From the NCBI GenBank assembly GCA_964652295.1, contig CAZZCL010000007.1, forward strand, positions 1-58,455: a stretch of DNA of 58,455 nt, given 5' to 3'. This DNA is from an uncultured Chthoniobacterales bacterium. Its GTDB lineage: Bacteria > Verrucomicrobiota > Verrucomicrobiia > Chthoniobacterales > CALDSX01. Made by a program: the position numbers and the translations under genes. The notes below the pieces were generated by a model. That model made no database searches, had not been told where the DNA came from, and saw nothing but the letters and a program-made list of their open reading frames with translations. Shown one piece after another: positions 9,232 to 44,073 of this stretch; the stretch's first letter is position 1; each line of letters opens with the position of its first letter.

Positions 9232-10898
9232 TGATACCACATTCCCACGCCCATCCCTTTCCTCGTCCGGGGATGATTCACTCCCCCTCTGGCGGCCAGG
9301 CTCACCGAAAGCATGGCTCCGCAGGTGCCGGACCACTCGCCGCCGCCCTTTTTAGCGTCCTTCTCGCGGGCGGGCCGTCTCCGGCCCACGCAGACGAGTC
9401 CGCAGCGGCCAAGGATCGGCGCCCCAACATTCTCTTCATCCTCGCCGATGATCATGGGACCGGTTCGATCGGTGCCTACGGCAGGAGCCTAGTGCCCACC
9501 CCGAATCTCGACCGCATCGCCAGCGAGGGAGCCATATTTCTCAGCAATACCACCGCAAACTCCATCTGCGGCCCCAGTCGCGCTTCCATCGTGACCGGAC
9601 AGCACGCCAGTCGCCACGGCGTCATCGGCAACCAGGTTCCCTTCGATAACTCTCAGTGGACTTTTCCGCAGTCGCTCCTGGAGGCAGGCTACCGAACAGC
9701 ATTGTTCGGAAAGTGGCACCTCTATTCCCGTCCCGAGGGCTATGAGACCATGGCGGTCAACGGTGGCTACGGTGGCCAGGGGGAATATTACAACCCGGTC
9801 TTCACGGATGCCCATGAGGAGCACACCCCGCACCATGGCCACAGCACTGAGATCATCACCGACTTGGCCATCCATTGGATGAAAAAAAACGAAGGAAGCA
9901 AGCAGCCATTCCTCGTTTCCATTCACTACAAAGCTCCTCACGGACGCTGGGAGCCATCCCCGGAAACGCTCCCGCTTTTCGCCGACGCCCCACTGCCGGA
10001 ACCTCCCGACTTGATCGATACAAATCTTGACCCCGCGTTGGCTCTGGCGAGGTTCCCAAACCGTCCGCGTATCGCCAAGCTTGCCGAAGCCGCCCATCTC
10101 TTTCTGGGGAAATCCCAGACGAGCCCGGTCCATTTCCCACCGAAAATGACCGACGATCAGAAGCCGACGTGGATTGCCGCCTATGGCAGCGAAAATGTGG
10201 ATCACCTGTCCGATCCGCCCGCATCCGAGGAAGACCGCATCCGTTGGAACTATCAACGCCTTATCAAAAACTACCTTCGCACGGTGGCCGGACTCGATCA
10301 ACAGGTCGGACGCATCCTTGCGGAACTCGAACACCTCGGACTCGCGGAAAATACCATCGTGATCTACGCGGGCGATCACGGGTTCTACATGGGCGACCGC
10401 GGGCTCTACAACAAGATGTGGAGCTATGAACCCGGCCTCCTGATGCCCTGCCTCATGCGCTGGCCCGGCCACATCGCCCCGGGCACACGGATCGACGCGC
10501 TGACTCAGAACATCGACTTTGCGCCCACCATCCTCGAAGCCGCCGGACTTCCCGTTCCAGATTCCGTGCAGGGTCACAGTTGGCTGCCCCTGTTCTCCGG
10601 GCAGACTCCCCCGGATTGGCGCGATTCGCTCTACTACGGATACCTTACCGATTACGGAGCACCAAAACACGAGGCCATCCGCACGAAGGATTGGAAACTC
10701 ATCCGCTTCCCAACCTTGGGAACCACTGAAATGTATCATCTCGCCAACGACCCTCGCGAACAACGCAACCTCGCCAACGATCCGAACCTCGCCACCCAGC
10801 GCGAAAAGCTCGAAACTCAACTCGCGCAGCTGCGCACCAAAACCGGGCACGATAACTTTTTTGACCAGCAGCCAACAACCCAGGCTGAAGACCGCTGA
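9228..10898 (+). CDS. Secreted Cys-type sulfatase
   Basis: ATGA overlap with the upstream gene. A hydrophobic leader ends ...AAALFSVLLAGGPSPAHA. Motifs NILFILADDHG and CGPSRASIVTGQ are present. Confidence 0.85.
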   Translation: MMIPHSHAHPFPRPGMIHSPSGGQAHRKHGSAGAGPLAAALFSVLLAGGPSPAHADESAAAKDRRPNILFILADDHGTGSIGAYGRSLVPTPNLDRIASEGAIFLSNTTANSICGPSRASIVTGQHASRHGVIGNQVPFDNSQWTFPQSLLEAGYRTALFGKWHLYSRPEGYETMAVNGGYGGQGEYYNPVFTDAHEEHTPHHGHSTEIITDLAIHWMKKNEGSKQPFLVSIHYKAPHGRWEPSPETLPLFADAPLPEPPDLIDTNLDPALALARFPNRPRIAKLAEAAHLFLGKSQTSPVHFPPKMTDDQKPTWIAAYGSENVDHLSDPPASEEDRIRWNYQRLIKNYLRTVAGLDQQVGRILAELEHLGLAENTIVIYAGDHGFYMGDRGLYNKMWSYEPGLLMPCLMRWPGHIAPGTRIDALTQNIDFAPTILEAAGLPVPDSVQGHSWLPLFSGQTPPDWRDSLYYGYLTDYGAPKHEAIRTKDWKLIRFPTLGTTEMYHLANDPREQRNLANDPNLATQREKLETQLAQLRTKTGHDNFFDQQPTTQAEDR

Positions 10899-11020
10899 AA
10901 TCCGACATCTCACTCTGGACTTCGCGTCCCAGGCTGGACGCTCCGTTGTGCAACAAGATCACTTGGAAATCCCCGCCATCACCTTCTTAGGAAATGCGGC
11001 ACACGAATAATTGCCATATT

Positions 11021-11049
11021 GTAAATACATTAGCGATTCCCCCCATCCC
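11021..11049 (+). promoter_or_regulatory. GTAAATACA box plus C-rich box (ATTCCCCCCATCCC) upstream of the propeller gene
   Basis: The identical 9-mer GTAAATACA recurs at 14570-14578, followed there by ATGTTCCCCCGCATAC. Both copies sit directly upstream of large secreted-protein genes, in AT-rich patches of an otherwise GC-rich window. Confidence 0.3.
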
Positions 11050-11091
11050 TTGAAACGTAAGTCCTCCCGGCCACTCCCTCCCCTTCATTTC

Positions 11092-14000
11092 ATGAGAAAT
11101 AATGTCAATCAAACCGTGCCAACGACCGTCTCTGGCTCTGCGTCCCATACTATCTTGGCGACGGTCGCGCTCGCTCTGTTCGGGTGGGTAGGCGGAGTCC
11201 TTGCGGCTCCGGCTGAATCAGGAAGTGCTCACAATGGCTTGAATGGGGGAGTTGCCTGCTATGTGGGTGCGGAGCACGCCGAAGAGGCTCTCAAACTGGC
11301 CAGGAATGAAAACTGGGTCGTCCACCTGCTCGATACAGATCGCACCAAGGTCGAAGCCATGTCCCGTCAAGCACTCGATGCGGGCCTTATCGGTAAAAAC
11401 ATCTACGTGGAAACATGGAATGGCAAGACCCTCCCTCACGCCGACCACTTGGTCACGACCCTCATGGCCAAAGCGGGAGCGGTGACCAGCGAAGAAGCAT
11501 TACGAGTGATCACTCCGATCCGGGGCGTGGCATCCATTGGCGACCAGACCCTCACCAAGCCCCTGCCGGAGGGTTCCGACGACTGGACGCACAGGATGCA
11601 TGGTCCCGACAACAATCCGGTTTCCGAGGATACGGCCTTCCAGTTGCCGTTTCTCCACCAGTTCGTGGTTCCCCCCAGGGCAAACAGCCTCAATGGTTCC
11701 TTGGTTGTCAGCAACGGAAGGCGCTTCGAACTCACAGATTGGGGACTGAAAAAGACGGATCGTGCCAACATTAGCGGGTGGCTTACGGCCCGTGACGCCT
11801 ACAATGGACAGGTCCTGTGGCGGCGGCGGTTGCCGGAAAAAATCGAGACCGATCGTCAGAACTCCGTTGCCGTCGGGGACCGCTTTTACCTCACCGCCGA
11901 CGACCGGCCCGCAGTGCTGGTTTTCGATGCCGAGACTGGAAACGAGTTGCCCGAGACCGTAGTATCACCGGATCCCGCCCAACGCATCCACTGGATGGGG
12001 ATCGAGAATGGACGGCTCTACGCGCTGCTCGGGCCCGAGATGGAGGTGAGAGGCAACGCGTTCGCGCTCGCCAATCAGCTCGCCCGCTTCAATCAGGCCT
12101 TCTCCGGCAAGGCCGTTGCCTGCTACGATCTCACCCAAGGGAGGCTCCTCTGGACCCATAAAGAGCCTGAAGGCACCATCGACTACCGCACGGTCGGGGT
12201 CCGCGACGGCGCAACGTATTTTTACACCGAAAACACCCGGCTGGCCAAACTCAATGCCAACGGTCAGGTCGAATGGGAAAATCGTGACGCATGGATCGGC
12301 GACCTCGAACGCAATCCCAAGCATCATGGGGCCAATTCCGCCGGTGTTTCCACGCTGCTCATCGGCCCGACGGGTCAGCTCCGGCTCAGTTTGCACGCCG
12401 TGGACGACTCCTATATCTTCGACACCACCTCCGGCAAGCTCCTCTGGCAAGTCCCCGAGGGCCGACGCACCTCGGCGACCAAGTGCTTGCTGGTGGATGG
12501 CAAAGTCGTGCAGGGCAGTGTGGCCTTCGACGCCACCTCCGGGGATGTCCTTGCGGAAGGTCAGGAGGTTCGCGAAGGAGGAGGGTGCGGAGTCATCTCA
12601 TGGGTCCCGGGTGCGGCCAAGGCCATCGGTCACCTCCACTTCGGAGTGAAGTCGCCTTGCGGGCAGCCGATCTTTGCGGCCGGCGGCATGCTGCACCAGG
12701 CCTCTTCGTTTTGCGATTGCCCGGGCCCCGTTCGTGGCGCGGCCGCACTCGCCCCGGGCGGGAAGGTTCTCGCCCAAATTGCCGCCACTGCAGAGCACCC
12801 TCTCGAAACCGGCGATGCGCCGAGTCCCACATTGAAAGCGGGGTCTGGAGACTGGTCGCAATTCCGCTCCAATCCCGAGCGCCAGAGCCATGCCACCACT
12901 CAAGTTCCAGCCCAAGGCAAGATCGCATGGATCTCGACTGAAACCAACCCGCTCCTAGTGCCGGAAGGGCACAACATGCACCGCTTCGAGTGGCTGGACC
13001 GCCCGACGCCTCCGGTCACCGCAGGGGGGTTGGTCTTCCATGGTGGCAGCGACGGAGTCGTCAAGGCCACGCGAATCTCCGATGGCTCTCGCGCATGGTC
13101 CTACGCCACCGCAGGGCCGATTCTCAGCTCGCCCGCATTTGAAGGTGGCCGTCTCTTCGTTGGATCGGGCGACGGTTGGCTCTATTGTTTGGATGCCGCC
13201 ACAGGCAAACTGGCCTGGCGCTACCGCGGAGCCCCCGTCGAGCGGCGCATGATGTGGAACGGCAAACTCTCCAGCAACTGGCCCATTACGAGCATGGTTC
13301 TGCGCGACGGAAAGGTCTACGCCGTTGCCGGCATGCTCAAACAGAGCGGGGTGCATCTTTTCTCCCTCAACGCTGTGGATGGGAAAACCGTGTGGAGCCA
13401 ATGGTCCGAACCCAGCTTCGACGCCGACGAGGCTGCGGAAGGCGGTGAGCCCACCGAACCTGCGGCACCTCCGGCCCATGGCTACGCTCCGAGCGGAACA
13501 ATGGCTCTCAATGGCGACGTTCTTTGGGTTCGGGACTTCATGGGTATTCCGACCCTTTTTAACGCGGCCACCGGAGAGCGGATTCTGCCACCCAGGTCTC
13601 TCGAAGCCGCTGTTGCCAAGCACTACCACCGCATGTGGATGCGGAATCCTGGCAAGGACACCGTCGTCATCGACGCCGACCTCGTCCTCCAGGGAGGGAT
13701 GCACCTCGCCGCCAACCCCGATGAAAGGCGCGATAAATCTACCCTCGGCTTCTTCGCATGGCGGGTTGACGAAAGCGGGAACGCCCCCGGCCTGCCATAC
13801 CCATTCGAAGCTCCACCTCAGGGAACTATTCCTCCGTCGCTCGACCAAAGCGACATCCTCATGGTGGGCGGCCACCTGCCTTCCGAAAAACGCGTCACCT
13901 CGCGGAATGACAGCCTGGATACTCTAGGGGTCAGCCTCTGGTCGCTGCCGGTCTGGCGGCAGGAAATGGAGGACAGCACCATCGCAGAAAGTCGAAACAA

Positions 14001-14355
14001 AGCCAAAGGCCCGAAAAAGGGCAACGAGGACCCTTACTCGGTCAGCAAAAAGTGGAAACCCATCGACTTCGCCAAAGCATCGTGGTCGAAGCCGGATATC
14101 GACGCAAGCGCGGTGGTCCTTGGTGCGGACGCAGCTCTGGTGGCTCATGGTATCGCGGCCAAACAAAAAACCAAATCCGGGCTCTTCCCACCCTACGAAA
14201 CCTGGAAACTATCCGCCTTCGATCGCAAAACCGGCCAGGAGAGATGGACGGTCGATCTGCCGGGTGAACCCATCTTTGACGGAATAGCCCCCGCTGCGGA
14301 CGGATCCTGGGTGGTCGCTCTCCGCGATGGCTCAATCGCCTGCGTAAAACAGTAA
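11092..14355 (+). CDS. Large secreted PQQ-like beta-propeller repeat protein with a degenerate methyltransferase-like N-domain
   Basis: ORF 11011..14355 (TTG start) trimmed to ATG 11092. Signal anchor ILATVALALFGWVGGVLAAPA. PQQ/BamB-like repeats include GGLVFHGGSDGVVKATRISDGSRAWSY and LFVGSGDGWLYCLDAATGKLAWRY. The N-region GGVACYVGAEHAEEALKLARNENWVVHLLDTD resembles a class I MTase fold without a clean GxGxG motif. Confidence 0.6.
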   Translation: MRNNVNQTVPTTVSGSASHTILATVALALFGWVGGVLAAPAESGSAHNGLNGGVACYVGAEHAEEALKLARNENWVVHLLDTDRTKVEAMSRQALDAGLIGKNIYVETWNGKTLPHADHLVTTLMAKAGAVTSEEALRVITPIRGVASIGDQTLTKPLPEGSDDWTHRMHGPDNNPVSEDTAFQLPFLHQFVVPPRANSLNGSLVVSNGRRFELTDWGLKKTDRANISGWLTARDAYNGQVLWRRRLPEKIETDRQNSVAVGDRFYLTADDRPAVLVFDAETGNELPETVVSPDPAQRIHWMGIENGRLYALLGPEMEVRGNAFALANQLARFNQAFSGKAVACYDLTQGRLLWTHKEPEGTIDYRTVGVRDGATYFYTENTRLAKLNANGQVEWENRDAWIGDLERNPKHHGANSAGVSTLLIGPTGQLRLSLHAVDDSYIFDTTSGKLLWQVPEGRRTSATKCLLVDGKVVQGSVAFDATSGDVLAEGQEVREGGGCGVISWVPGAAKAIGHLHFGVKSPCGQPIFAAGGMLHQASSFCDCPGPVRGAAALAPGGKVLAQIAATAEHPLETGDAPSPTLKAGSGDWSQFRSNPERQSHATTQVPAQGKIAWISTETNPLLVPEGHNMHRFEWLDRPTPPVTAGGLVFHGGSDGVVKATRISDGSRAWSYATAGPILSSPAFEGGRLFVGSGDGWLYCLDAATGKLAWRYRGAPVERRMMWNGKLSSNWPITSMVLRDGKVYAVAGMLKQSGVHLFSLNAVDGKTVWSQWSEPSFDADEAAEGGEPTEPAAPPAHGYAPSGTMALNGDVLWVRDFMGIPTLFNAATGERILPPRSLEAAVAKHYHRMWMRNPGKDTVVIDADLVLQGGMHLAANPDERRDKSTLGFFAWRVDESGNAPGLPYPFEAPPQGTIPPSLDQSDILMVGGHLPSEKRVTSRNDSLDTLGVSLWSLPVWRQEMEDSTIAESRNKAKGPKKGNEDPYSVSKKWKPIDFAKASWSKPDIDASAVVLGADAALVAHGIAAKQKTKSGLFPPYETWKLSAFDRKTGQERWTVDLPGEPIFDGIAPAADGSWVVALRDGSIACVKQ

Positions 14356-14569
14356 GACTGAATGTTCCAAGCCCAAGTCAGGATCCATGCAAAGGCATCC
14401 AGGCCATTTCCATCCCCCTCTTTGAGGCCAAAGGGACTTTCTCCAACACCTGCCCGAATGACGGTCAGACTGGAAGTCCATAGAAGTGACACAACATGCA
14501 ACAGGATAACCTTGAAATGCCACATTCACAGGCTCCGCAGGGTTGCGGAGCGAGAATGAAGTATTCATA

Positions 14570-14596
14570 GTAAATACAAGATGTTCCCCCGCATAC
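14570..14596 (+). promoter_or_regulatory. GTAAATACA box immediately upstream of, and C-rich box overlapping, the start of the giant pseudopilin gene
   Basis: GTAAATACA at 14570-14578 lies 2 nt before ATG 14581. ATGTTCCCCCGCATAC matches the C-rich boxes at 11036-11049 and 42778-42800. Confidence 0.3.
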
Positions 14597-17500
14597 TAGA
14601 GAAAAGACTCCCCCTTTCCCGGTCGTCCCGACTTCCGGGACCGCTTGATGTTTCTCCATTCAGACAAGGTTTCACCCTTGTTGCGGTGCTTGCTATTCTG
14701 GCACTCCTGATGGTGTTGATCCTGTCGATTTCGGCCGTGACACGCGTCGAAACTCGTGCGAGTGCCTCGGCGAAGAACCTGCTCATCGCCCGCAACAATG
14801 CGATCATTGGCCTCCAGACCGCCATCGGCCAGCTCCAGCTCTATGCGGGCAAAGACCAGGCGGTCACTTTCCCTGCGACCACGTTCTACCCAACGAAGGA
14901 TATCAACCTCCCCGCTGCCTCCTATCCGGCCCAGGGCCGCGGTGAACTCTTCGACGATGGGACCTTCGGATACCGGCAGTTTGCCCAGACGAGCAACCAA
15001 CGCAGCTACCTTGATCAAGTCGAGACCTACCTGACCCCCAATGAGCGCGAAAACTGGGATACGGCGCTGCAGGTCTATTGGAACGCAAACAAGCACCCAC
15101 ACTGGGTAGGCGTCATGGACTCCTCCCTCCGCGTGGATCGTGCCAGGGATCCGAACGCCCAGCCCGGGGTGCTGCCTCCCCAGCGTTACGAACTCCTTGG
15201 GAATAACACAAAGTTTGGCGAACCCAAGCGCGACCAAATTCCTGTTTGGCTCGTGAGCGGGAACGAACGCTTCCTTATTGACCAGGAGTCCGGCCAAGTA
15301 ACCGGCGCAGACGGCAGCGTAGTGGCCACCAACGAATATCCGGTAGATTACCAGACCCCTTTGACTGACATTCCCAACCCGGCACCTGACAACAATGCCG
15401 TCTGGCTGGTGGGAGAGGGAAGCGCGACGGTCGCGAGCGATTCCTCAGACGGACTCGACGGACGGGTCAAAGTTCGCAAGCAAGAGATCAAACCGGACGC
15501 GCAATCCACCACCAGGCCGATCGGCCACTATGCCTACTGGATCGGCGACGAGTCCACCAAGGCAAACTTTGCCGCCCGCGATCCCTATACCAACGCCTCG
15601 CCGGGCAGCGTCGAATACCGCAACCGGCTCCAGTCCCCCCAGCGCATTGGCTGGGAGAACATCACCGGGTTTGATTCCGCCACATTCAACGCAAATGACG
15701 CCCGGCTCCTGAATGTTTCGTCATCCCGGGATATCGCCCTCCTGGAAGCCACGAATACTGAGGAAATTCAGGATGCCGCCCAGGGGAACTTCCACCACCT
15801 CACCGCCCACTCGAAATCCCTGCTGACCGATGCGGTCCTTGGCGGCCTGAAAAGCGATCTCACCCGTTTCCTGGCAGGGGGAGCCGGTCCCTCCCAGACT
15901 GATCCGATCGCCGATCCTGCGCGCTATACGGTGTCCGATGCGCGCTTCCGCGCTTGGGGGGGCAGCAACGACGGCTTCCCAAACACTGGTGCGACCGCTC
16001 TCGACGGCATCCCGACCTGGGGCCAGGTTAAGGATTGGTATGACCGCGCCGCCGCAGGCACGGGCGGGAGTATTTCTCCCGACCCCGACGCGGGCATCGG
16101 GCCGGTGCTGACATATCTCATGTTCAACGCCGGTTGGTCTTACCATGAGGCCTCCCGGCGAATCCGTTGGCACTGGATGCCCTGTCTCGTGCTCTGGAAC
16201 CCCTTCGACGTGCCCCTGGTCCCCGCTACCTACGAAATCGAACTCGAGTTCTCCCCCGAGCTGGAAAAAGGCTTCGTCGTCAAGGAAAACCCTTCCCTCG
16301 CGGAGTTGCAGCTTCAGGCCGGTGCGGACTGGCGCCCCGATCCCAGTCCCGCCACCGACGAAAATGGGGACGGTGATCCGGCCAACGACTGGCTCTTCAA
16401 AAATAGGGCAGGCAACGACCAAGTCCGGCGGAATCCCGCCAATGCTGACACGACCAATATCACCCCGGAACTTGAAGTGGCCGACGGCGATCTGGCAGAC
16501 GGCGTGACCGATGCCTTTGGGCATCTCTATTATCGCTTAGCAAACCCCGGAGACCCCGATATTCACGTCTCCTACCACAACCCGCCCGGGCCCAGCGGTG
16601 CTCTGGGCCCGACGGGTAGCCGCGCGACCGCCACCCGGCTGGTACCGCACCATGATGCAACCAATTCGGGCTCCAAACGCCCCATCAAGAGAACGATGCA
16701 GTTCCAGCTGACATCAGGATTCTCTGCGGGGGAAGCCTTGGTATTCTCGCTGCCGGCTCAGCAGCAGTGGACTAAGGGAGCCCCCATTCCTCTTGTCAAC
16801 GACTACGTGGCCAATGATCCCAAAGACATGTGGTTTGACGTCCTGGAAGTTGTCAACGGGCCGGCCTCGGCTGAGGCGGATGGCCTGAAATGGATGTTTT
16901 ACAGCGGAGCTACCGGCTTCTCGAACCCCAAGGTCACCATCACGGTGGCTGGACACGCAGTACCCCTTTTTGAGACCGAGGCTTTTGGCGACGTGGGCAG
17001 CAAAAATCCGTGGGACGACCACGCGCTGGGTGAAGACTACCACAACTGGCGAGATGCCAACAAGACTGGCGACGCGGACGGCGATGGAGTTCTGAACGAT
17101 CCGCAACTCGGGGGTGGGGAGCCGATGCCGAAGTTTCTTCAGAATTGGCGACCGCTCTACGATTTTTCCAACTTTGCGGCCAATGTGGTGACCGATTCCG
17201 GCAGGGCGACCCAAGCTTCCAACTGGGGATTTTCTCGCACTTGGATCCAGCCCCTGACCGGGGAAACCGGAGGCTCCATCCAAGAAAGGAATCTCCATCG
17301 ATTTGCTCCGGTGATGAGCCGTTCCAACTTTGCGGCCAGCTATCAGGACCTCCACCCTTTGGTGGAGGCCTTTCGTAATAGGAATGATGATTCGAACTAC
17401 AACCACCTCGGGCAGGAGGATGGCCTGTCCCAGTTTTTCAACACGAGATTCTCTGGAGGCAGTGGGGATAAGTATGTGCAGTGGGACGAGGAGCAGACCG

Positions 17501-19179
17501 CCGGCACCAGCGGGTTTCCACTTCTCACATTCAAGGATGTCGACGGTCCTTACAAAGGGGTTAGCCAACTCATGGTTCGCAATGCCCGCCGAGCCCAGTC
17601 GGAGATCCTCTCGCTGGGTCAGTTTCAACAGGTCAACCTTTCCCGGTACCACTGGCAGCCGGCCTTTCCCATCGGCAACTCCTGGGCTGCGCCTTACACC
17701 GATCGCGAGGCTATCGCGGGTTTGCATTCGCGCCCCGTCGGCACCGACAAGAATCCGGCCCCCACCGGAATCCAGGCCAGCTCCGATTACCCGGCGGCGG
17801 GCTACCGATCCAACAACGCCGACCAGCAAATGGTGAAGATATCTTCACCCAACGGAACGGCTTGGCGTCTCATCAACACACCCGGCAATACGCTCATGGA
17901 TTTGAGCTATTTGCTGAACGAGAATCTTTGGGATCGCTACTTTCTCTCCACCATAGTCGGAACGCCAAATTTTAGCGACCCACTTCCCAACAGCCGTCTG
18001 AGATTTACCTCCGATGCAGCCACGGCGGCTGGCTCAGATGTGACTGGAAGCGAGACCGCTGCCGCATATCTGGAGAATTGGGGTGCCCTCAATGTGAATT
18101 CGACTTCGGTCGAAGCATGGAAAGCCCTGCTCACCGCATTCCGTGACTTGAAATTGGCGACGGGTGGCAGCGCAAATCCCGCCGAAACCGTCCCCGTCAG
18201 CCGCACCCTCGATCCCACCGGGGCCGCCATCGACTTTGCTTTCGATAATTCACTCAACCCCACGATCGACTCGAACCACATCGGCTCACTCGCCTCGGAC
18301 AAGGATTACTCACAGGTGATGAATGGCTTTCGCTACCTCACCGATGGGATGATCCAAGTGCTCGCCGAACGCATCGTGGACGAGGTGCGTCTCCGGGGGC
18401 CATTCCTCTCCCTCGCCGATTTTGTAAACCGCCGACTCGTCGCACCGCAGGGCTCGCGCACCCCCGGCTCCGATTGGTTTCTCGCCCGCACGGTGGGCGG
18501 GCCGGATGCGGTGTGGGATAATGACAACCACCCGGACTATATGAAGCCTTCCTACGATCCCTGCATTGGGCTTCAAGGGCTTTCCGGTTCCATTCAACGA
18601 GCCATCCAAACCTCCGGCATCAATGGGGGGGTGAATGATCCCCGCCTCGGCGCGGACGGTAACGGAGTCGGTTCCGATTTGGACATGATTTATACGATTC
18701 GGATCCGCGATGGCGGTGATGCTGATGACTCCACGACCAGCTACAGTTCCAACGGCATCGGAAAAGCTGCCAACGCTCAACCCGGCAATTCCGTGGAAAG
18801 CAAGCACTTCCGCCACACCCAGGAACCCGCCATGCGAAGCCACCTCGACAGCGAACATGTGGCGGGAGCGCCCGTCGGGGAAGCGGGCCAGCTCTTCGAT
18901 GGGGCCCCCGGCTTCGTGACACAGGGAGACCTCCTCGCGATGATCGGGCCAGCCTTGAACGCGCGGGGCGACACCTTTCTGGTCCGTAGCTACGGCGACG
19001 CTTTGGACTCGCAGGGCCGGGTGCTGGCCCGGGCCTATCTGGAGGCTGTCGTCCAGCGACTTGCGGCACCGGTGCAGCCTGCCGGTTCCGCAGGTCAAGA
19101 CCGCTGGCGCTACACCGACAAATTCGGACGCCGTTTCGAAGTCGTGAAGTTCCGTTGGATCAACCCGGAGGATTTGTAA
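14581..19179 (+). CDS. Giant (1532 aa) GspK/PilX-like pseudopilin; resembles my recollection of 'Verru_Chthon cassette protein A'
   Basis: The N-terminus MFPRILEKRLPLSRSSRLPGPLDVSPFRQG|FTLVAVLAILALLMVLILSIS is a prepilin-like class III signal that lacks Glu at +5, as in GspK. It is followed by a PilX_N-like helix, ARNNAIIGLQTAIGQLQ. The C-terminus GDTFLVRSYGDALDSQGRVLARAYLEAVVQR resembles the closing strands of GspK/PilX. Internal Ca-loop-like motifs are DENGDGDPANDW (16357-16392) and GDADGDGVLND (17068-17100). Confidence 0.7.
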   Translation: MFPRILEKRLPLSRSSRLPGPLDVSPFRQGFTLVAVLAILALLMVLILSISAVTRVETRASASAKNLLIARNNAIIGLQTAIGQLQLYAGKDQAVTFPATTFYPTKDINLPAASYPAQGRGELFDDGTFGYRQFAQTSNQRSYLDQVETYLTPNERENWDTALQVYWNANKHPHWVGVMDSSLRVDRARDPNAQPGVLPPQRYELLGNNTKFGEPKRDQIPVWLVSGNERFLIDQESGQVTGADGSVVATNEYPVDYQTPLTDIPNPAPDNNAVWLVGEGSATVASDSSDGLDGRVKVRKQEIKPDAQSTTRPIGHYAYWIGDESTKANFAARDPYTNASPGSVEYRNRLQSPQRIGWENITGFDSATFNANDARLLNVSSSRDIALLEATNTEEIQDAAQGNFHHLTAHSKSLLTDAVLGGLKSDLTRFLAGGAGPSQTDPIADPARYTVSDARFRAWGGSNDGFPNTGATALDGIPTWGQVKDWYDRAAAGTGGSISPDPDAGIGPVLTYLMFNAGWSYHEASRRIRWHWMPCLVLWNPFDVPLVPATYEIELEFSPELEKGFVVKENPSLAELQLQAGADWRPDPSPATDENGDGDPANDWLFKNRAGNDQVRRNPANADTTNITPELEVADGDLADGVTDAFGHLYYRLANPGDPDIHVSYHNPPGPSGALGPTGSRATATRLVPHHDATNSGSKRPIKRTMQFQLTSGFSAGEALVFSLPAQQQWTKGAPIPLVNDYVANDPKDMWFDVLEVVNGPASAEADGLKWMFYSGATGFSNPKVTITVAGHAVPLFETEAFGDVGSKNPWDDHALGEDYHNWRDANKTGDADGDGVLNDPQLGGGEPMPKFLQNWRPLYDFSNFAANVVTDSGRATQASNWGFSRTWIQPLTGETGGSIQERNLHRFAPVMSRSNFAASYQDLHPLVEAFRNRNDDSNYNHLGQEDGLSQFFNTRFSGGSGDKYVQWDEEQTAGTSGFPLLTFKDVDGPYKGVSQLMVRNARRAQSEILSLGQFQQVNLSRYHWQPAFPIGNSWAAPYTDREAIAGLHSRPVGTDKNPAPTGIQASSDYPAAGYRSNNADQQMVKISSPNGTAWRLINTPGNTLMDLSYLLNENLWDRYFLSTIVGTPNFSDPLPNSRLRFTSDAATAAGSDVTGSETAAAYLENWGALNVNSTSVEAWKALLTAFRDLKLATGGSANPAETVPVSRTLDPTGAAIDFAFDNSLNPTIDSNHIGSLASDKDYSQVMNGFRYLTDGMIQVLAERIVDEVRLRGPFLSLADFVNRRLVAPQGSRTPGSDWFLARTVGGPDAVWDNDNHPDYMKPSYDPCIGLQGLSGSIQRAIQTSGINGGVNDPRLGADGNGVGSDLDMIYTIRIRDGGDADDSTTSYSSNGIGKAANAQPGNSVESKHFRHTQEPAMRSHLDSEHVAGAPVGEAGQLFDGAPGFVTQGDLLAMIGPALNARGDTFLVRSYGDALDSQGRVLARAYLEAVVQRLAAPVQPAGSAGQDRWRYTDKFGRRFEVVKFRWINPEDL

Positions 19180-19202
19180 ACGGAATCAAACCAAATACTG
19201 CG

Positions 19203-20030
19203 ATGCTGACCAGAAATCAGATCAATATCAGTAGCGGCGGATCAACCCTCCTCCGGCTTGCCATCATCCTTTCCCTCGCCTGGAGCCTTTCAATAACGGG
19301 AGCGCTCGCCGAGGCGCCTGTCGTCGAGTTGTCGGCCGCTTCCATCAGGGTTAAGGACCTTCCCCCCCTCTTCTATCTGGAGGTGAGCCAAGACGCAGCC
19401 GGACGCGAGCAGCGGAGGTTTTCTCCTCTTGACGTCTCCAGTTGTAAGCGAGGAGCCCTCGTAAGCCTGCCCTCTCAACGCCCGATTCAAATCTATACAA
19501 AGCACTCCAATACCGAAGGCAGCAATCCTATGAAACCCTTTCTCGACGTGCCTGCGAATGCGACAGCAACCCGGCTGTTGCTCGTCTTTTATTTGGACGA
19601 GCAAGGCAGGACGAAAACCACCTTCCTTGACGACTCAATCGACGCGCATCCACCGGGCACTGTGCGCATGGTTAATTTCAGTTCTCAGAGAATCGCTTTC
19701 ACAGTTGGCGGAGAGCCGATTCTCGTTCCGCCGGACGGAGATGCTGTTGCGCGTCGCGCTGCCGATGCGGACAACCGATTTACATTCAAATACTTTGCCG
19801 AAACCAAAAGAGGCAAAACCTACGAGTCACCCGAGAAGAACTTGGCTTTTCCCAAACCGGACTCCCGAATACTCTTTCTCTATTCCGCCGCACCGAAATT
19901 TTCACCAACCACGGATCCCGAGGAGTCCCCCGCGATTGTCGGCTACTCACCTGTTCTCCAGAGGATGCAGGATCGCGTCACACCACGCATGCTGGCCGGA
20001 GACATCAATAATTTCAGTTCCTCCCCATGA
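19203..20030 (+). CDS. Secreted protein of unknown function (cassette member)
   Basis: ORF 19155..20030 (TTG start) trimmed to ATG 19203. Signal peptide LLRLAIILSLAWSLSITGALAEAP. No recognisable motif. The gene sits between the K-like and H-like pseudopilin genes, and its stop overlaps the next start (ATGA). Confidence 0.55.
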   Translation: MLTRNQINISSGGSTLLRLAIILSLAWSLSITGALAEAPVVELSAASIRVKDLPPLFYLEVSQDAAGREQRRFSPLDVSSCKRGALVSLPSQRPIQIYTKHSNTEGSNPMKPFLDVPANATATRLLLVFYLDEQGRTKTTFLDDSIDAHPPGTVRMVNFSSQRIAFTVGGEPILVPPDGDAVARRAADADNRFTFKYFAETKRGKTYESPEKNLAFPKPDSRILFLYSAAPKFSPTTDPEESPAIVGYSPVLQRMQDRVTPRMLAGDINNFSSSP

Positions 20031-20668
20031 GAATCCCACATCATATATCCTCTGCCAGGAAGGGTTTTTCTCTGATCGAGTTGCTTACGGTGATCGGCAT
20101 TATCGCCATCATGAGCGGCCTTGCCATCATCGCCTCCAATAGCATTGGCCGGGGGAACTCGGTGCGTGGGGCCGTGGATCTTGCGTCGAGCCTTGTACTC
20201 GCTGCCCGAACCGAGGCGATGAGCCATGGACTGGGAGCCAAATTGGCCATCGATCATGGAACCGATCCCAACTACAAACTGCGCCGCATGGCGATCTACC
20301 GGGCCGAGGGCGATCCCGCCAACAAAGAGTGGAAGCTCGCTGGCAATGCCGTCATGCTGCCCCAAGGGGTTTATCTGGCAACCGCTAATGCGGTCGGTGC
20401 AAGCCTCGCCTTTGAAAATGGTGGTGCGGCCTTGGAAACGTTCGAGCTGACACCGGGTATTCAAACTGAGTGCGTTGTGTATGAGTTCGATGGCTCGGGT
20501 CACCTCGTCCAGCCCGGCCGCATACTCTTTGTTGCCGGCATCATGGAAAGCGATGGCACCGTCACGATCCCAGAAAGCATGCTCGACGGAATCAGAGGAT
20601 TCAAGCTGCCTGTGAACGGTCGCCCGGCGCACTTCGACTCAAAGGAACAGATTGAAAACGATGCCTGA
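20027..20668 (+). CDS. GspH/FimT-like minor pseudopilin (prepilin-type N-terminal methylation domain)
   Basis: ATGA overlap with the upstream gene. The class III signal is MRIPHHISSARKG|FSLIELLTVIGIIAIMSGLAI, with Glu at +5. It is followed by VDLASSLVLAARTEAMS, which resembles the GspH helix. Confidence 0.75.
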   Translation: MRIPHHISSARKGFSLIELLTVIGIIAIMSGLAIIASNSIGRGNSVRGAVDLASSLVLAARTEAMSHGLGAKLAIDHGTDPNYKLRRMAIYRAEGDPANKEWKLAGNAVMLPQGVYLATANAVGASLAFENGGAALETFELTPGIQTECVVYEFDGSGHLVQPGRILFVAGIMESDGTVTIPESMLDGIRGFKLPVNGRPAHFDSKEQIENDA

Positions 20669-21278
20669 AACAACCGTCTCCTTGACTGAACCGCGCCATT
20701 TCGGAGGGGTGTCCCCTGTCGGGCGCGACTCCTTTGGATTCTCGCTCATTGAGGTGGTTCTTGCTATTGGAATCGTCTCTTTCGGCCTGCTCGCTCTCCT
20801 CGGGGTCTTTGGAGGGATGCTGGGCAACGCAGGTCAAAATTTCGACCGCCGTGCCTTGAGCGAGTCCGTCGATGCACTCCGCACCGATCTCAACAATAAC
20901 TTCGGCTTCGATGAGGTTTTCGATTGGATTAAAGACGGAGACCCCAAGGACCTTGTGTATCTGACTTATCGAAACGATCCGGCCAGCGGCAGCACCGAGC
21001 CCGCCACCGAAGGCGATCGGGTGCTTGGCAAGTGGTTCGATGATCCTGCGGACGCATCTCTGATCACCGACTATGAACCAGCCCGTGAGGGTCGCTGGTT
21101 GCGGGCGCGTCTGAGCCTCGCCCCGCAGAATGTGCCCGCAACAATTAGCGGGTCGGACCCGACCGACTACCCTTCTGCCCTTCTTCTTTTGAAGGTCGAA
21201 CTTGGAGCAGTTCCCCAACCAAGCGAGGAGTGGCCCGACGGCCCGGCGCTGACAACCATCATCGGAGTCCTGCGATGA
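20661..21278 (+). CDS. GspI-like minor pseudopilin
   Basis: ATG 20661 overlaps the upstream stop by 8 nt. A 26-aa leader ends ...GRDSFG|FSLIEVVLAIGIVSFGLLALLGVF. The protein is small, about 205 aa. Confidence 0.7.
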   Translation: MPETTVSLTEPRHFGGVSPVGRDSFGFSLIEVVLAIGIVSFGLLALLGVFGGMLGNAGQNFDRRALSESVDALRTDLNNNFGFDEVFDWIKDGDPKDLVYLTYRNDPASGSTEPATEGDRVLGKWFDDPADASLITDYEPAREGRWLRARLSLAPQNVPATISGSDPTDYPSALLLLKVELGAVPQPSEEWPDGPALTTIIGVLR

Positions 21279-22153
21279 TTACTAGCCACGACGCCACCAG
21301 TGGATCGAAGGGGACTGCCTCGAATCAGTTTGATCGCCCGGCACATTCCACGGCGGCGTTTACGCTGATCGAATTATTGGTGGCCAGCGCCGTCTCTCTG
21401 CTTCTTGTGGCGGTCTTGCTCAACGCGACATCCAGTGTGCTTTCCGTCTATCGGACCATCGGGGGGAGTATCATCCGAAATGGCGATATCTCTTTCGCCC
21501 TCGATCAGGTGATTCTCGATCTGGAAAGTTTGGTGGTCCCCTCCAGCTTGGGCGCTGAGGCATTGAGGGTGACGCCTGATACTGTTGGTGGTCTGGATTC
21601 GCAGTGGCTCACATTCCTAACGTCGGCAACCGACAAGGACAATTCTGGAACAGTACTCTTCACGGGTGCAACCCGTGCAGTCTCGTACCGCATGGCATTT
21701 CAAAATCCGGTCGATGGTGGCTCTGAGAACCCCGTTTTTGCACTTTATCGCTCGATTTCCTCTGCTCGACACGCGTTCCAGAATGCTCTGGGACAACAGG
21801 ATTTACAGACGGGGTATTGGACGCAGCTTTCAGCCAGCCCGGCGCCAACTCCACGGCACCCAACTCACACGGATAGTTTTCTGGCGGGTAATGTCGTCGG
21901 CTTCAATATTCGGTTTCTGCGCTCTGATAATGGCAATTGGACGCAACCCGCCGACACGATCACCATCGCGAGGGATGGAGTCAAAGTGAATGACGTCCAG
22001 ATACCGGGCGGCTTCGAGCGCGCTGAAGTCTCGATAACGGCACTCACCCCCGAGGGAAGCCAGCGCGTGGCCAATGGCGAATTCGCGCTTTCGGATGCTG
22101 TCTCCCGCCATAGGCGGACATCGATCCGCCAAACCGCATTTCTTGGACAATGA
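21275..22153 (+). CDS. GspJ/PulJ-like minor pseudopilin
   Basis: ATGA overlap with the upstream gene. The leader ends ...PAHSTAA|FTLIELLVASAVSLLLVAVLLN, with Ala rather than Gly at -1. FALDQVILDLESLV resembles the PulJ helix. Confidence 0.7.
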   Translation: MITSHDATSGSKGTASNQFDRPAHSTAAFTLIELLVASAVSLLLVAVLLNATSSVLSVYRTIGGSIIRNGDISFALDQVILDLESLVVPSSLGAEALRVTPDTVGGLDSQWLTFLTSATDKDNSGTVLFTGATRAVSYRMAFQNPVDGGSENPVFALYRSISSARHAFQNALGQQDLQTGYWTQLSASPAPTPRHPTHTDSFLAGNVVGFNIRFLRSDNGNWTQPADTITIARDGVKVNDVQIPGGFERAEVSITALTPEGSQRVANGEFALSDAVSRHRRTSIRQTAFLGQ

Positions 22154-22896
22154 CCCGCAATGGCCCATCCTTCAAAACATCCAACCCCCAGAACAATCGT
22201 CTCATTATGAATCAATATAGCTGGAGATTGTTACTCCCTTTCCTGTGCCTCGCAGTAGCTAGCGGGCTTTCCTTGGCTTCAACCATTGCCGATTCCCTTA
22301 GCCTGGAATTGACCGCAACCGGAAATATTCTGATCATGGGGACGAAGGCAGAGCCTTTGGAAGTCCGTCAGGATGTATCGGAAACCTCTCGGGGTTCTTG
22401 GCGACGAGCGAAGGAGCAACCCCACTTCATGCAGGCTTCCGGAGCGGAAGTGACGCGCAACTCGACATACAATTTTCCTGATGGTTCACTCGTTGATCAC
22501 ACCTTGACCGCTCGCGTCGAGGGGCGGACGGTCTTTGTAGATGCTTCATGGGATACGGACAGCACCGCCCCAGGCTTTGCGAAGTCCGATCTCTGGATTC
22601 CAGAGTCGGTCGCCGAAGACCTGATCGTCACTATCGACGGAAAGGAATGCTTCCGCGACATGGAACTGCTTGGAGGAGCTTATTCAACGCCGCAGGAAAT
22701 CGTCGGGACGCTCGCTTCCACCGGGCAGACTCTCTTCATCATGAGAGGGGAGATAGCCAAGTTCACTCCAATCCTGTCCTCCCGCCAGGCCGAACCCTGG
22801 CTTGTGTTTCGGCTTTGGTCGCTCGACAACCCAAAGGATTCGACCATCAGTGACACGACAAAGCAAAGTTGGAGTATTGATTTCCCGGAGAAATGA
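22150..22896 (+). CDS. Secreted protein of unknown function (last cassette gene)
   Basis: ATGA overlap at 22150, with an alternative ATG at 22207. Signal peptide WRLLLPFLCLAVASGLSLAS. No recognisable motif. Confidence 0.55.
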   Translation: MTRNGPSFKTSNPQNNRLIMNQYSWRLLLPFLCLAVASGLSLASTIADSLSLELTATGNILIMGTKAEPLEVRQDVSETSRGSWRRAKEQPHFMQASGAEVTRNSTYNFPDGSLVDHTLTARVEGRTVFVDASWDTDSTAPGFAKSDLWIPESVAEDLIVTIDGKECFRDMELLGGAYSTPQEIVGTLASTGQTLFIMRGEIAKFTPILSSRQAEPWLVFRLWSLDNPKDSTISDTTKQSWSIDFPEK

Positions 22897-22897: not shown

Positions 22898-23988
22898 CCT
22901 AAATCCCGCAGTTGGCATGTCACGGTAACGCGTCTGCCAGCCAATGTGAAGGGCTGAGCGGGATATGCCAGCACAGATAACGCTCGGAGGTTTGCTGGAC
23001 ACCCAACTGCGGCGCAGTTGGGTGTCCAGCGTTGGAGTTCTTTGTAGGCTTGGCTGATAGCCGCCCACCATTTTTCTGAGATGGCCAGTTTGAGCGTTTT
23101 CTGCCGTCCGCTTTTGACCAGTTTGGCCAAGACGAGCAAGAGTTCATCACGGCTGGTCACCGCTTCGGTATGCACACCCTGTTCCTTGACCACCCCATCA
23201 TGTCCTTCATACTCTTGTAGGTTTCCCCAGCCATAAAAGCACAAGACTCTTTGAATGCAAAACAGACAAGCCAGCGCGAGCCCCGCAGGGGCACGGCTCG
23301 CGCGCAGGCGTCGAAAACCAAGGCCCGTGGCAGCCGTAACGCGGGCCGGGCACAACACACATAAGGGGATGGTGGCTGCCATGTCCGGGCTTTTCCGGGT
23401 TGTAGCCGACTTTCACCTCCTCCTGGTACCCGTAACGCGTGTTGACCGTTGAGTCCCAGCCCGCAATGAACTGCGGCGGCAGTGCCACGTAAAGATCTCG
23501 CTCGCTGGCAGCCATCCATGAGCGCGTTTTCTGCCGATCAGCCCGGCTCATCATCTGCACGAAAGCATCCTCCCTACACATCTGGCCCCGCTTGAGCCCG
23601 AGGATCGCCGCAGCGGCTCGATCGTCCTGAAGCCGTCTCATGTTGGGCAAATCGCTTGCCACCCATCAGTGCGTTGACCATGAAGGCGTGCAAAACGTCG
23701 CGCGCCGGCGTTGCGTTGGGACTCGTGCGCTCAAACGGAAAACGCCGTGCTAGGTCTTCCACTATGCCCGCACGCTCCAAATAGTGACTCCATGCCGCAA
23801 GCCCTCCGTAGGGTGTCAGCCGGTCTGCGCAGGCTTCCACCCCGATACGGCCACCGCCACACTCAAATCGAAATACATTTTCGCTTTCACCCTCCGACTG
23901 AAGCCCAGCAATCTCCAAGATCCTCTCCATTGGCCCATTCTATCAGCCTGAAAGCTCCTCCAGCGACTTTTCAAATGCGGGTTATAGG
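22898..23988 (-). mobile_element. Decayed IS1380-family insertion sequence (about 1.09 kb; frameshifted and internally deleted transposase) with IRs and a 5-bp TSD
   Basis: Transposase fragments lie in three minus frames. The N-terminus (23930->23574) contains DRLTPYGGLAAW...FERTSPNA. The middle fragment (23662->~23300) contains DSTVNTRYGYQEEVKVGYNPEKPGHGSHHPL, comparable to ISEcp1 IDSSV..EGHQEGASKGYNPKK. The C-terminal fragment (~23170->~23000) contains LAKLVKSGRQKTLKLAISEKWW. The region that should encode the rest of the DDE core is absent. Terminal inverted repeats are CCTAAATCCCGCAGTTGGCATG (22898-22919) and the reverse complement of 23967-23988, CCTATAACCCGCATTTGAAAAG (16/22 identical). 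ATGAT flanks both ends (22893-22897 and 23989-23993). Confidence 0.8.
22995..23029. repeat. 35-nt perfect palindrome inside the IS, at the 3' end of the transposase reading frame
   Basis: In CTGGACACCCAACTGCG-G-CGCAGTTGGGTGTCCAG, all 17 arm positions pair around a single central G. Confidence 0.9.
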
Positions 23989-24128
23989 ATGATCGGTCAG
24001 CCGCGACCATCCTTGATGTTCCTGTCTTTTGTGGAAAGGTACTTTCTTCACTCAATACGCACAAATAAACGCCTTTCCGACGGAGCAAGCCGTTTTGTCA
24101 GCGAGTAGCCACATATCCAGTCTCTCCG

Positions 24129-42717: not shown

Positions 42718-42784
42718 GTGATATGGTAGCATTTTACTCAGGACAGTTTCTCCCTATCCCCCCAACTTTGGTATTCCGTGTTCC
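42718..42784 (+). promoter_or_regulatory. Conserved promoter/5'-leader element, copy 1 (upstream of the DUF1559-type pseudopilin gene)
   Basis: A GTGATAT box is followed, 33 nt from its start, by TCCCTATCCCCCCAACTTTGGTATTCCGTGTTCC. The element is colinear with 44007-44073: the 7-mer box is identical, the spacing is identical, and 28 of 34 positions match in the downstream block. Confidence 0.5.
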
Positions 42785-43023
42785 TCCTCCCCCCCCGCAT
42801 TCTCACCAAGCCATTTATAGGTGGCCTCACCTCTGCGTTTGGCATGGGGGAACGTTGTCGTGGTGGCGGCAGTCATCGGAGCAACGCAGTTCCCGCCAAT
42901 TGCTCAAGAGCTTTTCTCACCGACAGAGAGATCGCAGCTCCAAAACTCACCCGATCTAAAAGCTTTCTACCCAGGTCCTCAGGGTGGACGCCAACCAACC
43001 AGCAGGCTGGATGCACTAAACGA

Positions 43024-43656
43024 ATGAAATCGAGCGGATTGACCCTCACTGAACTGTTGGTGGTCATATCCATTATCGCGATTCTTGCGGCCATCCTGCT
43101 CCCGGTTATGGCTAAAGTCCGCGATCAGGCTCGTCGGACCGCCTGCCTCTCTAACTTGCACGAGGTCGGTCTCGCCTGTCACCTGTTCGCCGCAGAACAT
43201 GAGCAGCACCTGCCGGTCAATAGCCACGTATCCAATCCGCACCTCCGTTTAATTGACTGTCTGACACCCTACCTTAAAAGCCTCGACGTTTTCTACTGCC
43301 CATCAGCGGGGTTTGCCAAACAATCCTACCTGCTCGACACCCCGGAACACCGGGCCCTTGGCAACATCAGCTACTATTACTTCTGCTTTGATGAACTGCC
43401 TTCAACCGCACCCGGCAACGGTAGCGCTCCGACATTTATAGGATGGATCGACAAATGGGTGGCGCGTGAATGGGGCGACCGCCCAAGGAACATGACGATG
43501 CTCTGGGACCGGGATTACTGGTTGGCCTGCTGCTGGTTCGCGGGACCGACAAATGCCAGCAAAATCCACGGCGGAAAATATGCCTCGAATAACATCATCT
43601 ACCTCGGCGGCCATGTGAAATACAACATCGGCCAGGCGCGTGACGCCTTTAAGTGA
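43024..43656 (+). CDS. DUF1559/H-X9-DG-like pseudopilin (GspG-like prepilin-type N-terminal methylation domain)
   Basis: ORF 42778..43656 trimmed to ATG 43024. The class III signal is MKSSG|[23 protein letters not shown], with Glu at +5. [20 protein letters not shown] is typical of the DUF1559 family. The C-terminus [19 protein letters not shown] is a variant of the H-X9-DG motif. Confidence 0.75.
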
Positions 43657-44006: not shown

Positions 44007-44073
44007 GTGATATATTAAACTTTGTTTCCCACTGCTTCCTCCCTATCCCCTCAACCTCGGTATACCATGTCCC
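44007..44073 (+). promoter_or_regulatory. Conserved promoter/5'-leader element, copy 2 (upstream of the giant RCC1 protein gene)
   Basis: A GTGATAT box is followed, 33 nt from its start, by TCCCTATCCCCTCAACCTCGGTATACCATGTCCC. See copy 1 for the comparison. It lies in an AT-rich patch. Confidence 0.5.

Follow-up and report, generated by a model that had tools for sequence, protein, structure and literature searches.

This work concerns a gene, here called gene A, in a 58 kb stretch of Verrucomicrobiota-type DNA (~59 % G+C, from a microbial-mat metagenome) that was analysed as a whole and is referred to as the window. Gene A (14581-19179, plus strand, as are all features of the window given below unless stated) begins with ATG, encodes 1,532 aa and is the sole long open reading frame (ORF) in that interval. 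Our analyses make it probable that its product is a giant modular minor pilin of the insertion type, in the functional class of GspK and PilX, which would cap and prime a type IV filament together with H/I/J-like pilins. The sequence features noted in the gene are not a matter of chance, because both termini are kept in 105 homologues (E 0 to 5e-23). The main interest of the gene lies in the size of its family, the missing annotation, a conserved partner gene and a possible link between pili and glycans in Verrucomicrobiota. The gene A sequence itself was matched solely in DNA runs of microbial-mat metagenome, and a promoter and terminator scan gave a result at chance level.

Covariation, signal and fold of the gene A product

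The initial annotation had taken the two ends of the protein for the two ends of one pseudopilin. The ORF and all the peptides that it quoted are present, with GFTLVAV at aa 30-36, ARNNAIIGLQTAIGQLQ at aa 70-86, GDTFLVRSYGD...VVQR encoded at nt 18967-19059 and RRFEVVKFRW at nt 19129-19158. Evidence that these ends belong together came from mean-field direct coupling analysis (DCA) of 147 aligned full-length members (effective number of sequences, Meff, 121-141), in a run limited to the putative core segments that ranked ~24,000 residue pairs. The six strongest couplings, at 7.7-12.4 standard deviations (SD), every one join distant segments: S325-G1463 (12.4 SD), A89-F1519 (10.8 SD), L292-V1468 (9.5 SD, tying the aa 273-325 region to the sheet), T96-V178 (8.4 SD), H316-D1473 (8.1 SD) and L78-A1489 (7.7 SD). 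Q79-E1520 and L78-S1470 rank next. Four of these pairs (78-1489, 89-1519, 79-1520 and 78-1470) run from helix to sheet, and 325-1463 and 316-1473 share an antiparallel register (i+j = 1788/1789). A second common antiparallel register (i+j = 2957) is given by 1467-1490 and 1473-1484, between the strands 1465-1475 and 1481-1497 predicted by AlphaFold2 (AF2), and the last two strands are tied by the pairs 1494-1506, 1495-1509 and 1486-1527. Because the top couplings join helix positions 78/79/89 to 1489/1519/1520 and strand 313-325 to strand 1463-1475, we read the protein as carrying a split pilin-like core.

The residues found at the coupled positions are in keeping with direct contact. Leu or Met at position 78 pairs with Ala1489, and Ala or Val at 78 with Met, Leu or Val at 1489 (14 sequences); Thr or Ser at 89 is always found with Tyr1519 (8/8) and Ala89 with Phe1519 (119 sequences), and Asp or Asn at 79 co-occurs with Lys1520. 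The swaps at 78-1489 and 89-1519 are size-compensating and hydroxyl-pairing and occur in many independent lineages. They do not go back to one inherited event, because sequences inside the variant groups are mostly 28-50 % identical, with two or three closer pairs of up to 74 %.

Structure was predicted with AF2 for a natural 997-aa homologue (mean predicted local distance difference test score, pLDDT, 61.5; predicted template-modelling score, pTM, 0.61; middle poorly modelled) and for a deletion construct joining aa 26-100 to aa 1140-1532 of the gene A product (pLDDT 80.7, pTM 0.66). Both models have alpha1 (aa 29-89; 14665-14847) as a single unbroken 61-residue helix at pLDDT 92-98, with a hydrophobic alpha1N and a conserved alpha1C in which A70, A74, A81 and Q86 are invariant. 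The helix is followed by an invariant G90-x-D92-Q93 turn and a short strand, aa 94-98 (14848-14874), which takes part in the T96-V178 covariation. Both models also end in a confident C-terminal helix and three long strands, at aa 1448-1458 and at 1465-1475, 1481-1497 and 1517-1527 respectively (18922-19161; pLDDT 74-96). The invariant residues of the family concentrate in alpha1C and in these last strands (T1465, F1466, R1469, G1472, E1488, Q1492, R1493 and R1517). Further strands at aa 273-325 with the motif GHYAYWIGDESTKANF (aa 315-330) were marked by AF2 and covariation (15397-15570). The pilin-like sheet starts with strand 313-325, behind which the large insertion begins.

The topology from alpha1 to 313-325, then 1463-1475, 1481-1497 and 1517-1527, would be that of a type IV pilin fold, and covariation and AF2 secondary structure together indicate that alpha1C packs on the last two strands of a four-stranded antiparallel sheet. 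About 1,137 residues separate the first strand of this sheet from the last three, and ~195 more lie between alpha1 and the first strand. The proposal that the two termini meet in one pilin-like core is thus borne out as a helix-on-sheet core by covariation, and falls short as regards homology to GspK past the N-terminus. Likewise the split stands, while the single insertion of ~1,400 aa has to be replaced by two, at ~aa 100-295 and 326-1462, because the sheet also uses strand 313-325.

At the N-terminus a leader peptide of 30 residues (14581-14670) ends at Gly30 in a putative prepilin-peptidase site, RQG↓FTLVAV (arrow, predicted cleavage), with Ala at +5 in place of Glu. The class III-type signal without Glu+5 described in the initial annotation holds across the family: among the 147 members, position -1 is Gly in 124 and Ala in most others, +1 is Phe in 108 and Ser in 15, and +5 is I/V/A/L/S/T/M and Glu in none. 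Judged by sequence, Gly or Ala at -1, Phe at +1 and no Glu at +5 make up the signature of GspK and PilX. The likeness to GspK that had been noticed at this end was supported by a profile-profile comparison with hhalign, in which family aa 25-185 aligned with GspK 2-170 (46-sequence GspK alignment) over ~160 residues at a probability of 95.7 % and E 8.9e-9. Single-profile searches gave less. The NCBIfam GspK model NF037980 (cut-off 130 bits) matched gene A with 14.3 bits at residues 29-96 only, Pfam T2SSK_1st and T2SSK had no match at E <= 10 for gene A or its fragments, and the supposed PilX_N-like segment found no counterpart, as Pfam PilX_N (PF14341) was unlisted at E <= 10 for aa 1-140.

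The inserted residues and the gene family

The remark that the middle of the protein has no nameable family proved apt. A Pfam scan of the gene A product matched no family, NCBIfam gave weak matches only (TIGR02600 and GspK) near the N-terminus (~60 residues, within ~29-96), and the family profile had 0 matches among PDB sequences. Mean pairwise identity in the family alignment is 49 % for aa 29-100, 46 % for aa 101-270, 45 % for aa 271-560, 24 % for aa 561-990, 49 % for aa 991-1139, 53 % for aa 1140-1300, 42 % for aa 1301-1430 and 59 % for aa 1431-1532. Most of the inserted part (aa 101-560 and 991-1430) is therefore conserved, at 42-53 %, and not free-varying. The short natural members (997-1,195 aa) differ from the long ones by many small loop deletions rather than by one lost block. 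Comparison of homologues, which had been proposed as a check, thus agreed with the expectation of fixed termini and of a diverging centre (aa 561-990), and disagreed with it in that the rest of the insert is conserved and its length does not change by a single block.

The hypervariable centre (16261-17550) stands out by low occupancy as well as low conservation, is beta-rich in a low-confidence part of the AF2 model of the homologue, and is the candidate ligand-binding part. It contains two acidic loops, DENGDGDPANDW at aa 593-604 (16357-16392), whose DENGDGD motif is restricted to a sub-group of the family, and GDADGDGVLND at aa 830-840 (17068-17100), where a DxDGDGxxN pattern (aa 831-840) is semi-conserved and may, going by its motif, bind Ca2+. 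The initial annotation had likened both to thrombospondin type 3 loops; they lie where it placed them, and a scan of gene A with Pfam TSP_3 (PF02412) found no match, leaving two isolated DxDGDG loops. Closer to the C-terminus, conservation and AF2 delimit a helical module at aa 1140-1300 (GALNVNSTSVEAW...LAERIVDEVRLRGPFxSLADFVNRRL; 17998-18480) with pLDDT mostly 81-96 and 69-70 in two 10-residue blocks. It has a weak Pfam HHH_6 match (E = 0.066) and a motif-level likeness to INvNT...R..g..F of GspK that is not significant. Its identification with the SAM-like domain of GspK was considered and is unsupported, a Foldseek search with the confident construct having found nothing.

The initial homology search yielded 105 proteins, 1,000-1,680 aa long, whose sources are Opitutales, Kiritimatiellota and other Verrucomicrobiota; almost all of them are annotated as hypothetical, and every full-length member retains both termini. 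A search of 1.84 billion representative proteins, clustered at 50 % identity, with a profile for the C-terminal module (aa 1140-1532) found 3,556 clusters at E <= 1e-3 and 2,615 at E <= 1e-30. The module-bearing proteins are mostly of 1,100-1,300 aa and have the module at the extreme C-terminus; the short matches of this search, considered as natural minimal forms, all proved to be N-truncated fragments. Species-representative genomes hold at least 584 copies of gene A, often several per genome. From that scan 80 loci were kept, with ORFs of 1,070-2,019 aa, and all are labelled Verrucomicrobiota or related Planctomycetes-Verrucomicrobia-Chlamydiae (PVC) or unclassified bins, with one doubtful exception. 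This exception (L074), the sole member whose label lies outside Verrucomicrobiota and Kiritimatiellota, is on a 7 kb contig labelled as a Polynucleobacter meluiroseus metagenome-assembled genome (MAG), and it has the look of contamination at binning more than of horizontal transfer.

In Kiritimatiellota bacterium B1221 (L005) two paralogues stand in tandem (5009-9730 and 10001-14698; 1,573 and 1,565 aa) and two further ones are found elsewhere in the genome. The ends of the tandem pair are 85 % and 83 % identical and the centre 42 %.

For a few homologues a name exists, with PilX given automatically by JGI to one of them and "Verru_Chthon cassette protein A" given by UniRef to P0069 and P0102. 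The corresponding model, TIGR02600, scored gene A at 27.2 bits against a cut-off of 332.3, over profile positions 1-58 of 1,296. Of 21 more members, 17 had weak matches (10.8-39.6 bits, N-terminal only) and 4 had none, and the isolated C-terminal module had no match to it at E <= 1. Because 0/22 members tested reach the cut-off, we consider the gene A family to be separate and un-modelled.

Gene neighbourhood, proposed role and alternatives

Directly 3' of gene A lies a gene for a secreted protein of ~275 aa with a Sec-type signal (19203-20030), here called the partner. Homologues of the partner follow A directly in relatives (L001 14068-14811, L003 14487-15260, L006 13898-14638), and an iterated profile placed this ~250-aa secreted protein right after A in ~62 of the 76 loci for which downstream DNA is available, with 2-3 copies in some. 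Pfam, NCBIfam and PDB contain no relative of it. Three prepilin genes follow. The first (20027-20668) encodes a GspH/FimU-like prepilin with the signal G↓FSLIELL (Pfam N_methyl 1e-5; NCBIfam GspH 5.5e-6 and Verru_Chthon D 4e-5, neither reaching its cut-off), the second (20652-21278) a GspI/PilV-like prepilin with G↓FSLIEVV (Pfam N_methyl; NCBIfam Verru_Chthon B 3e-4, GspI 0.011 and PilV 0.011, all sub-cut-off), and the third (21230-22153) a GspJ/PilW-like prepilin with A↓FTLIELL (Pfam N_methyl 0.0011; NCBIfam HpsC 0.0047, sub-cut-off), which has a 55 % identical orthologue at the same position in L003. The last gene of the string (22150-22896) encodes a 248-aa secreted protein with no family match, and its membership of the system is uncertain.

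The string A-partner-H-I-J is kept in L003 at 41-55 % identity per gene. In two other relatives (L033 and L040) a divergent LacI gene is followed by H-I-J, a gene for an 884-aa secreted protein, A and the partner, so that A stands downstream of H-I-J as gspK does in gspH-I-J-K, with one gene between. In L040 the intervening gene (4489-7143, plus strand) encodes a Sec-signal protein without a Pfam family. That H/I/J-like prepilins are encoded beside A, and in this order in two relatives, counts in favour of the initial interpretation. No secretin, ATPase, platform or prepilin-peptidase gene was found in the window or in ~85 related loci, and for this reason we place the assembly machine elsewhere.

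The window is otherwise rich in sulfatases, glycoside hydrolases (GH116, GH63-like, GH5, GH42-like) and sugar-acid enzymes, and has a GPH sugar transporter and LacI and AraC regulators. Six Opitutales loci were compared, those of the window, Rariglobus, an ENA MAG, Coraliomargarita, an Opitutaceae MAG and Cerasicoccus. In every one of them A lies among carbohydrate-active enzyme (CAZyme), sulfatase and sugar-transporter genes, and a gene for a sugar-responsive regulator (LacI, AraC or GntR) is often beside it. This count over six loci is suggestive of an association of A with polysaccharide genes.

From these observations a working model can be drawn. A prepilin peptidase would cut the gene A product after Gly30, and the hydrophobic alpha1N would anchor it in the inner membrane. 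Without Glu+5 it could take no place in a type IV filament but the first, at the top. The pilin-like core, formed by alpha1 (aa 29-89), strand 313-325 and strands 1463-1527 with the final strand supplied in cis, would dock with the H-, I- and J-like prepilins encoded downstream, as the neighbourhood and the GspIJK/PilVWX paradigm suggest, and the resulting tip complex would prime assembly of a pilus or pseudopilus by the machine encoded elsewhere. The ~1,330 non-core residues would sit on the filament tip as a conserved scaffold carrying the hypervariable beta-rich aa 561-990 with its acidic DxDGDG loop. The exposed, fast-evolving centre probably binds substrate. Because the Opitutales loci are sugar-degrading and most of the divergence between paralogues is in the centre, the exposed part probably acts as a substrate-specific polysaccharide binder, this being the weaker step of the argument. 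Such binding would serve either to capture the polysaccharide or to position the enzymes of the locus, giving gene A a presumed role in polysaccharide capture or secretion, and the conserved ~250-aa secreted partner would be an obligatory accessory.

Several results weigh against the tip-pilin reading. The packing of helix on sheet is derived from covariation and not from viewed model coordinates, and a generic hydrophobic helix carries most of the N-terminal hhalign score. In the structural check that had been proposed, neither model gave a significant pilin match: Foldseek against PDB found nothing significant for the 997-aa homologue, where beta-sandwiches of arrestin-, leukocidin- and CBM-like (carbohydrate-binding module) type came out at E >= 0.017 and GspK (3ci0_K) ranked no higher than sixth (E 0.1, TM 0.16), and for the deletion construct the best match was VirB8-like (E 1.1), GspK being outside the top 50. 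C-terminal pieces aligned with GspK in hhalign at E 0.01-0.05 and a probability below 5 %, and concatenated profiles with the insert deleted did no better against GspK than controls with shuffled order or irrelevant segments. This also applies to the segment with strand 313-325 when joined to alpha1, which aligns with the "D..g.FNLN" strand of GspK. There are collinear motif likenesses to GspK (LNVNST to INvNT, RGPF.SLADF to R..g..F, RGDTF.VR.YG to S.YF and DESTKANF to D..g.FNLN), and we have not used them as evidence because their scores do not beat the controls. On sequence comparison, homology to GspK outside the N-terminus is not demonstrable. As to the neighbourhood, every H/I/J assignment is under the curated cut-offs, H-I-J are adjacent to A in few loci only, and the absence of core machine genes near A counts on the same side. 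The link to polysaccharides is weakened by housekeeping neighbours in the non-Opitutales loci L005 (Kiritimatiellota) and L089 (Luteolibacter), and by the richness of these genomes in CAZymes in any case. Finally, the suggested search of the insert for a lectin, propeller or CBM fold assigned none, and glycan binding is purely what we infer.

The same architecture could also belong to a short pseudopilus of a type II secretion system (T2SS), in which A would be a locus-specific replacement of GspK that selects or pushes sulfatases and glycoside hydrolases through the secretin; this differs from the reading as a pilus tip solely in the machine and its output. In its favour, sequence similarity is highest with T2SS GspK and with pseudopilins of the H/I type, T2SS GspK likewise has its final strand in cis (PMC13533445), and the locus encodes secreted enzymes. 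For related PVC bacteria it has been proposed that the T2SS is up-regulated on fucoidan and that alginases are exported by a T2SS (PMC11685898, PMC13274419). However, more than 1,300 extra residues at the tip would be hard to house in a periplasmic pseudopilus or in the secretin vestibule, the core T2SS genes are absent nearby, and multiple paralogues per genome suit exchangeable adhesins better. We therefore regard a T2SS role as unlikely.

Lower still is the probability that A is no filament subunit but a large envelope protein, either signal-anchored (type II membrane) or Sec-secreted, whose N-terminal helix would do no more than tether it to the inner membrane and whose prepilin neighbours would be unrelated to it. 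In line with this, the Pfam N_methyl match of an N-terminal fragment is under the cut-off (E = 0.0047), no pilin family reaches its cut-off, the H-I-J genes are usually not adjacent and Foldseek finds no pilin. Such a protein would not, however, explain why a conserved G/A-F junction immediately precedes a ~21-residue hydrophobic stretch running into a 61-residue helix, nor why covariation ties the soluble half of this helix to the strands at the very C-terminus. The recurrence of weak NCBIfam matches to GspK and TIGR02600 at the N-terminus of many family members, and the order H-I-J-(884 aa)-A in L033 and L040, also argue for a filament subunit. That gene A is a plain member of TIGR02600 is very improbable, since the UniRef names, the N-terminal matches, the weak B and D matches of the neighbours and the shared logic of a giant protein with three prepilins in Verrucomicrobia are set against scores of 27 bits where 332 are needed, over positions 1-58 of 1,296 and likewise in 21 further members, and against a C-terminal module that the model does not match.

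Returning to the tip pilin, a wider proposal can be made, which we hold to be doubtful at present. Verrucomicrobiota and Kiritimatiellota may keep libraries of exchangeable giant tip pilins, each with its ~250-aa accessory and often within LacI-co-regulated polysaccharide clusters, so that for each glycan the matching tip would prime a shared type IV machine. If true, this would be a substrate-specific "fishing" pilus or secretion piston, a pilus-based counterpart of SusD/TonB capture. To our knowledge, SusD/TonB capture systems are lacking in Verrucomicrobiota and Kiritimatiellota. Verrucomicrobiota are major degraders of sulfated polysaccharides in oceans, mats and guts, and if the centre binds glycans, gene A would help to explain how they use these polysaccharides without Sus-like systems.

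Other features of the window and of related loci are recorded here. Immediately upstream of A, a gene for a 1,114-aa protein with a PQQ/BamB-type propeller (11011-14355; propeller at aa ~670-860) was considered as a PilY1-like tip partner, PilY1 having a propeller too, and rejected, as it is not beside A in any of ~80 related loci. The ~1.2 kb that separate the pilin cassette from the GPH transporter gene (22900-24100) are of lower G+C (0.54-0.57), hold just short overlapping minus-strand ORFs (118-232 aa) without a Pfam match and could be a decayed gene or a mobile-element remnant. A second pilin-like gene (42778-43656; Pfam N_methyl and DUF1559/SBP_bac_10, weak GspG similarity) is followed by one for a 2,075-aa protein (44022-50249) with Big_7, three K319L-like PKD domains and an RCC1-type propeller, and both stand among sulfatases. 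The position of the second pilin-like gene matches that of the many PulG-like pseudopilin genes in the polysaccharide loci of an Opitutales isolate (PMC13274419). In Cerasicoccus fimbriatus (L088) a small second cassette (17391-21843, plus strand), ~4 kb 3' of A and its partner, encodes two prepilins of the N_methyl type, with 182 and 212 aa, a protein of 827 aa for which Pfam has no match and one of 253 aa, and may be another, shorter tip set.

Comparison with known systems

In that same Opitutales isolate a pseudopilin is over-expressed on alginate and a PulG-like pseudopilin gene lies in an alginate-induced cluster (PMC13274419), which matches the gene neighbourhoods of A.

The Verru_Chthon cassette (TIGR02600 A, TIGR02598 B, TIGR02599 C, TIGR02596 D) resembles the arrangement described here in having a giant protein with a GspK-like N-terminus and three prepilins, in being multi-copy and in being specific to Verrucomicrobia. 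A literature search on its name found no paper. In the window the cassette partners scored 21 bits for B (cut-off 51.4) and 23.7 bits for D (cut-off 70), and C was not detected. Unlike the cassette, the gene A family has its own C-terminal module and a conserved ~250-aa partner, and the two arrangements appear from their sequences to be analogous only.

Modular pilins were defined by Raynaud et al. 2021, the largest case having 860 aa (PMC8179133). In PilB (vWA) and PilC (lectin) of Streptococcus sanguinis a pilin carrier shows an effector at the tip, and carbohydrate-binding modules are common in this class (PMC8179133). There the effector is a C-terminal graft, whereas in the gene A family, of 1,070-2,019 aa, it is inserted. 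The family was missed by the IPR012902-based census of modular pilins. In GspK, with an alpha-domain, and ComZ, with a beta-solenoid, the extra domain sits inside the pilin sheet (PMC8179133), and covariation and the AF2 strands give gene A this insertion-type design, a helix on a sheet flanking a large insert. ComZ of Thermus thermophilus, a minor pilin of type IVa pili, has, as far as the summary in PMC8179133 of PMC6561018 goes, a proposed tip location and DNA binding. It is far smaller than the gene A product, with another insert fold and ligand, and is likened to it by design and not by sequence.

The closest comparison is with GspK/XcpX (PF21687 and PF03934, NF037980, PDB 3CI0). The gene A product shares with it a class III signal lacking Glu5, a profile match across the N-terminal ~160 residues, a domain inserted in the pilin sheet, a last strand in cis, H/I/J-type minor pilins nearby and a predicted position at the top of the tip. 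It differs in size (1,532 aa against ~330 aa) and in its insert, which in GspK is an alpha-domain of ~110-150 aa and here exceeds 1,100 residues, mostly novel and partly beta-rich. It also differs in leaving the Pfam and NCBIfam cut-offs unreached, in having no significant structural match and in lacking T2SS core genes nearby. GspK/PilX-class minor pilins decide filament building and tip content. The gene A family would stretch the inserted-domain design from ~110 residues to more than 1,100, in at least 3,556 clusters and at least 584 copies in the species-representative genomes of one phylum, with no Pfam or NCBIfam model.

Ellison et al. 2026 showed that filament assembly is licensed by the last strand in the sheet of K-type minor pilins, which GspK and CpaL supply in cis and PilY1/PilC and MshQ in trans (PMC13533445). 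CpaL/TadG of Tad pili likewise has an N-terminal minor-pilin-like domain, a large middle and a C-terminal strand returning in cis; CpaL is of ~600 aa, with a dispensable middle of 470 aa (PMC13533445). The Pfam Tad model scored gene A at E = 0.68, and the likeness is functional rather than demonstrated homology. In the pair of PilX and PilY1/PilC, the C-terminus of PilY1 does in trans what the last strand of gene A would do in cis (PMC13533445). PilY1 differs in having a C-terminal beta-propeller (PF05567/IPR008707) and no pilin signal, whereas gene A has a pilin-type N-terminus, and the Pfam scan of gene A gave no match to the PilY1/PilC propeller model. The analogy with a PilX/PilY1 fusion, drawn in the initial annotation, would be compatible with the cis/trans terminal beta-strand rule (PMC13533445). 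On the fold proposed here, gene A fits the cis class of that rule and would be its most extreme example so far. The recent rule of licensing by a terminal beta-strand, whether in cis or in trans, could be put to a natural test in this family.

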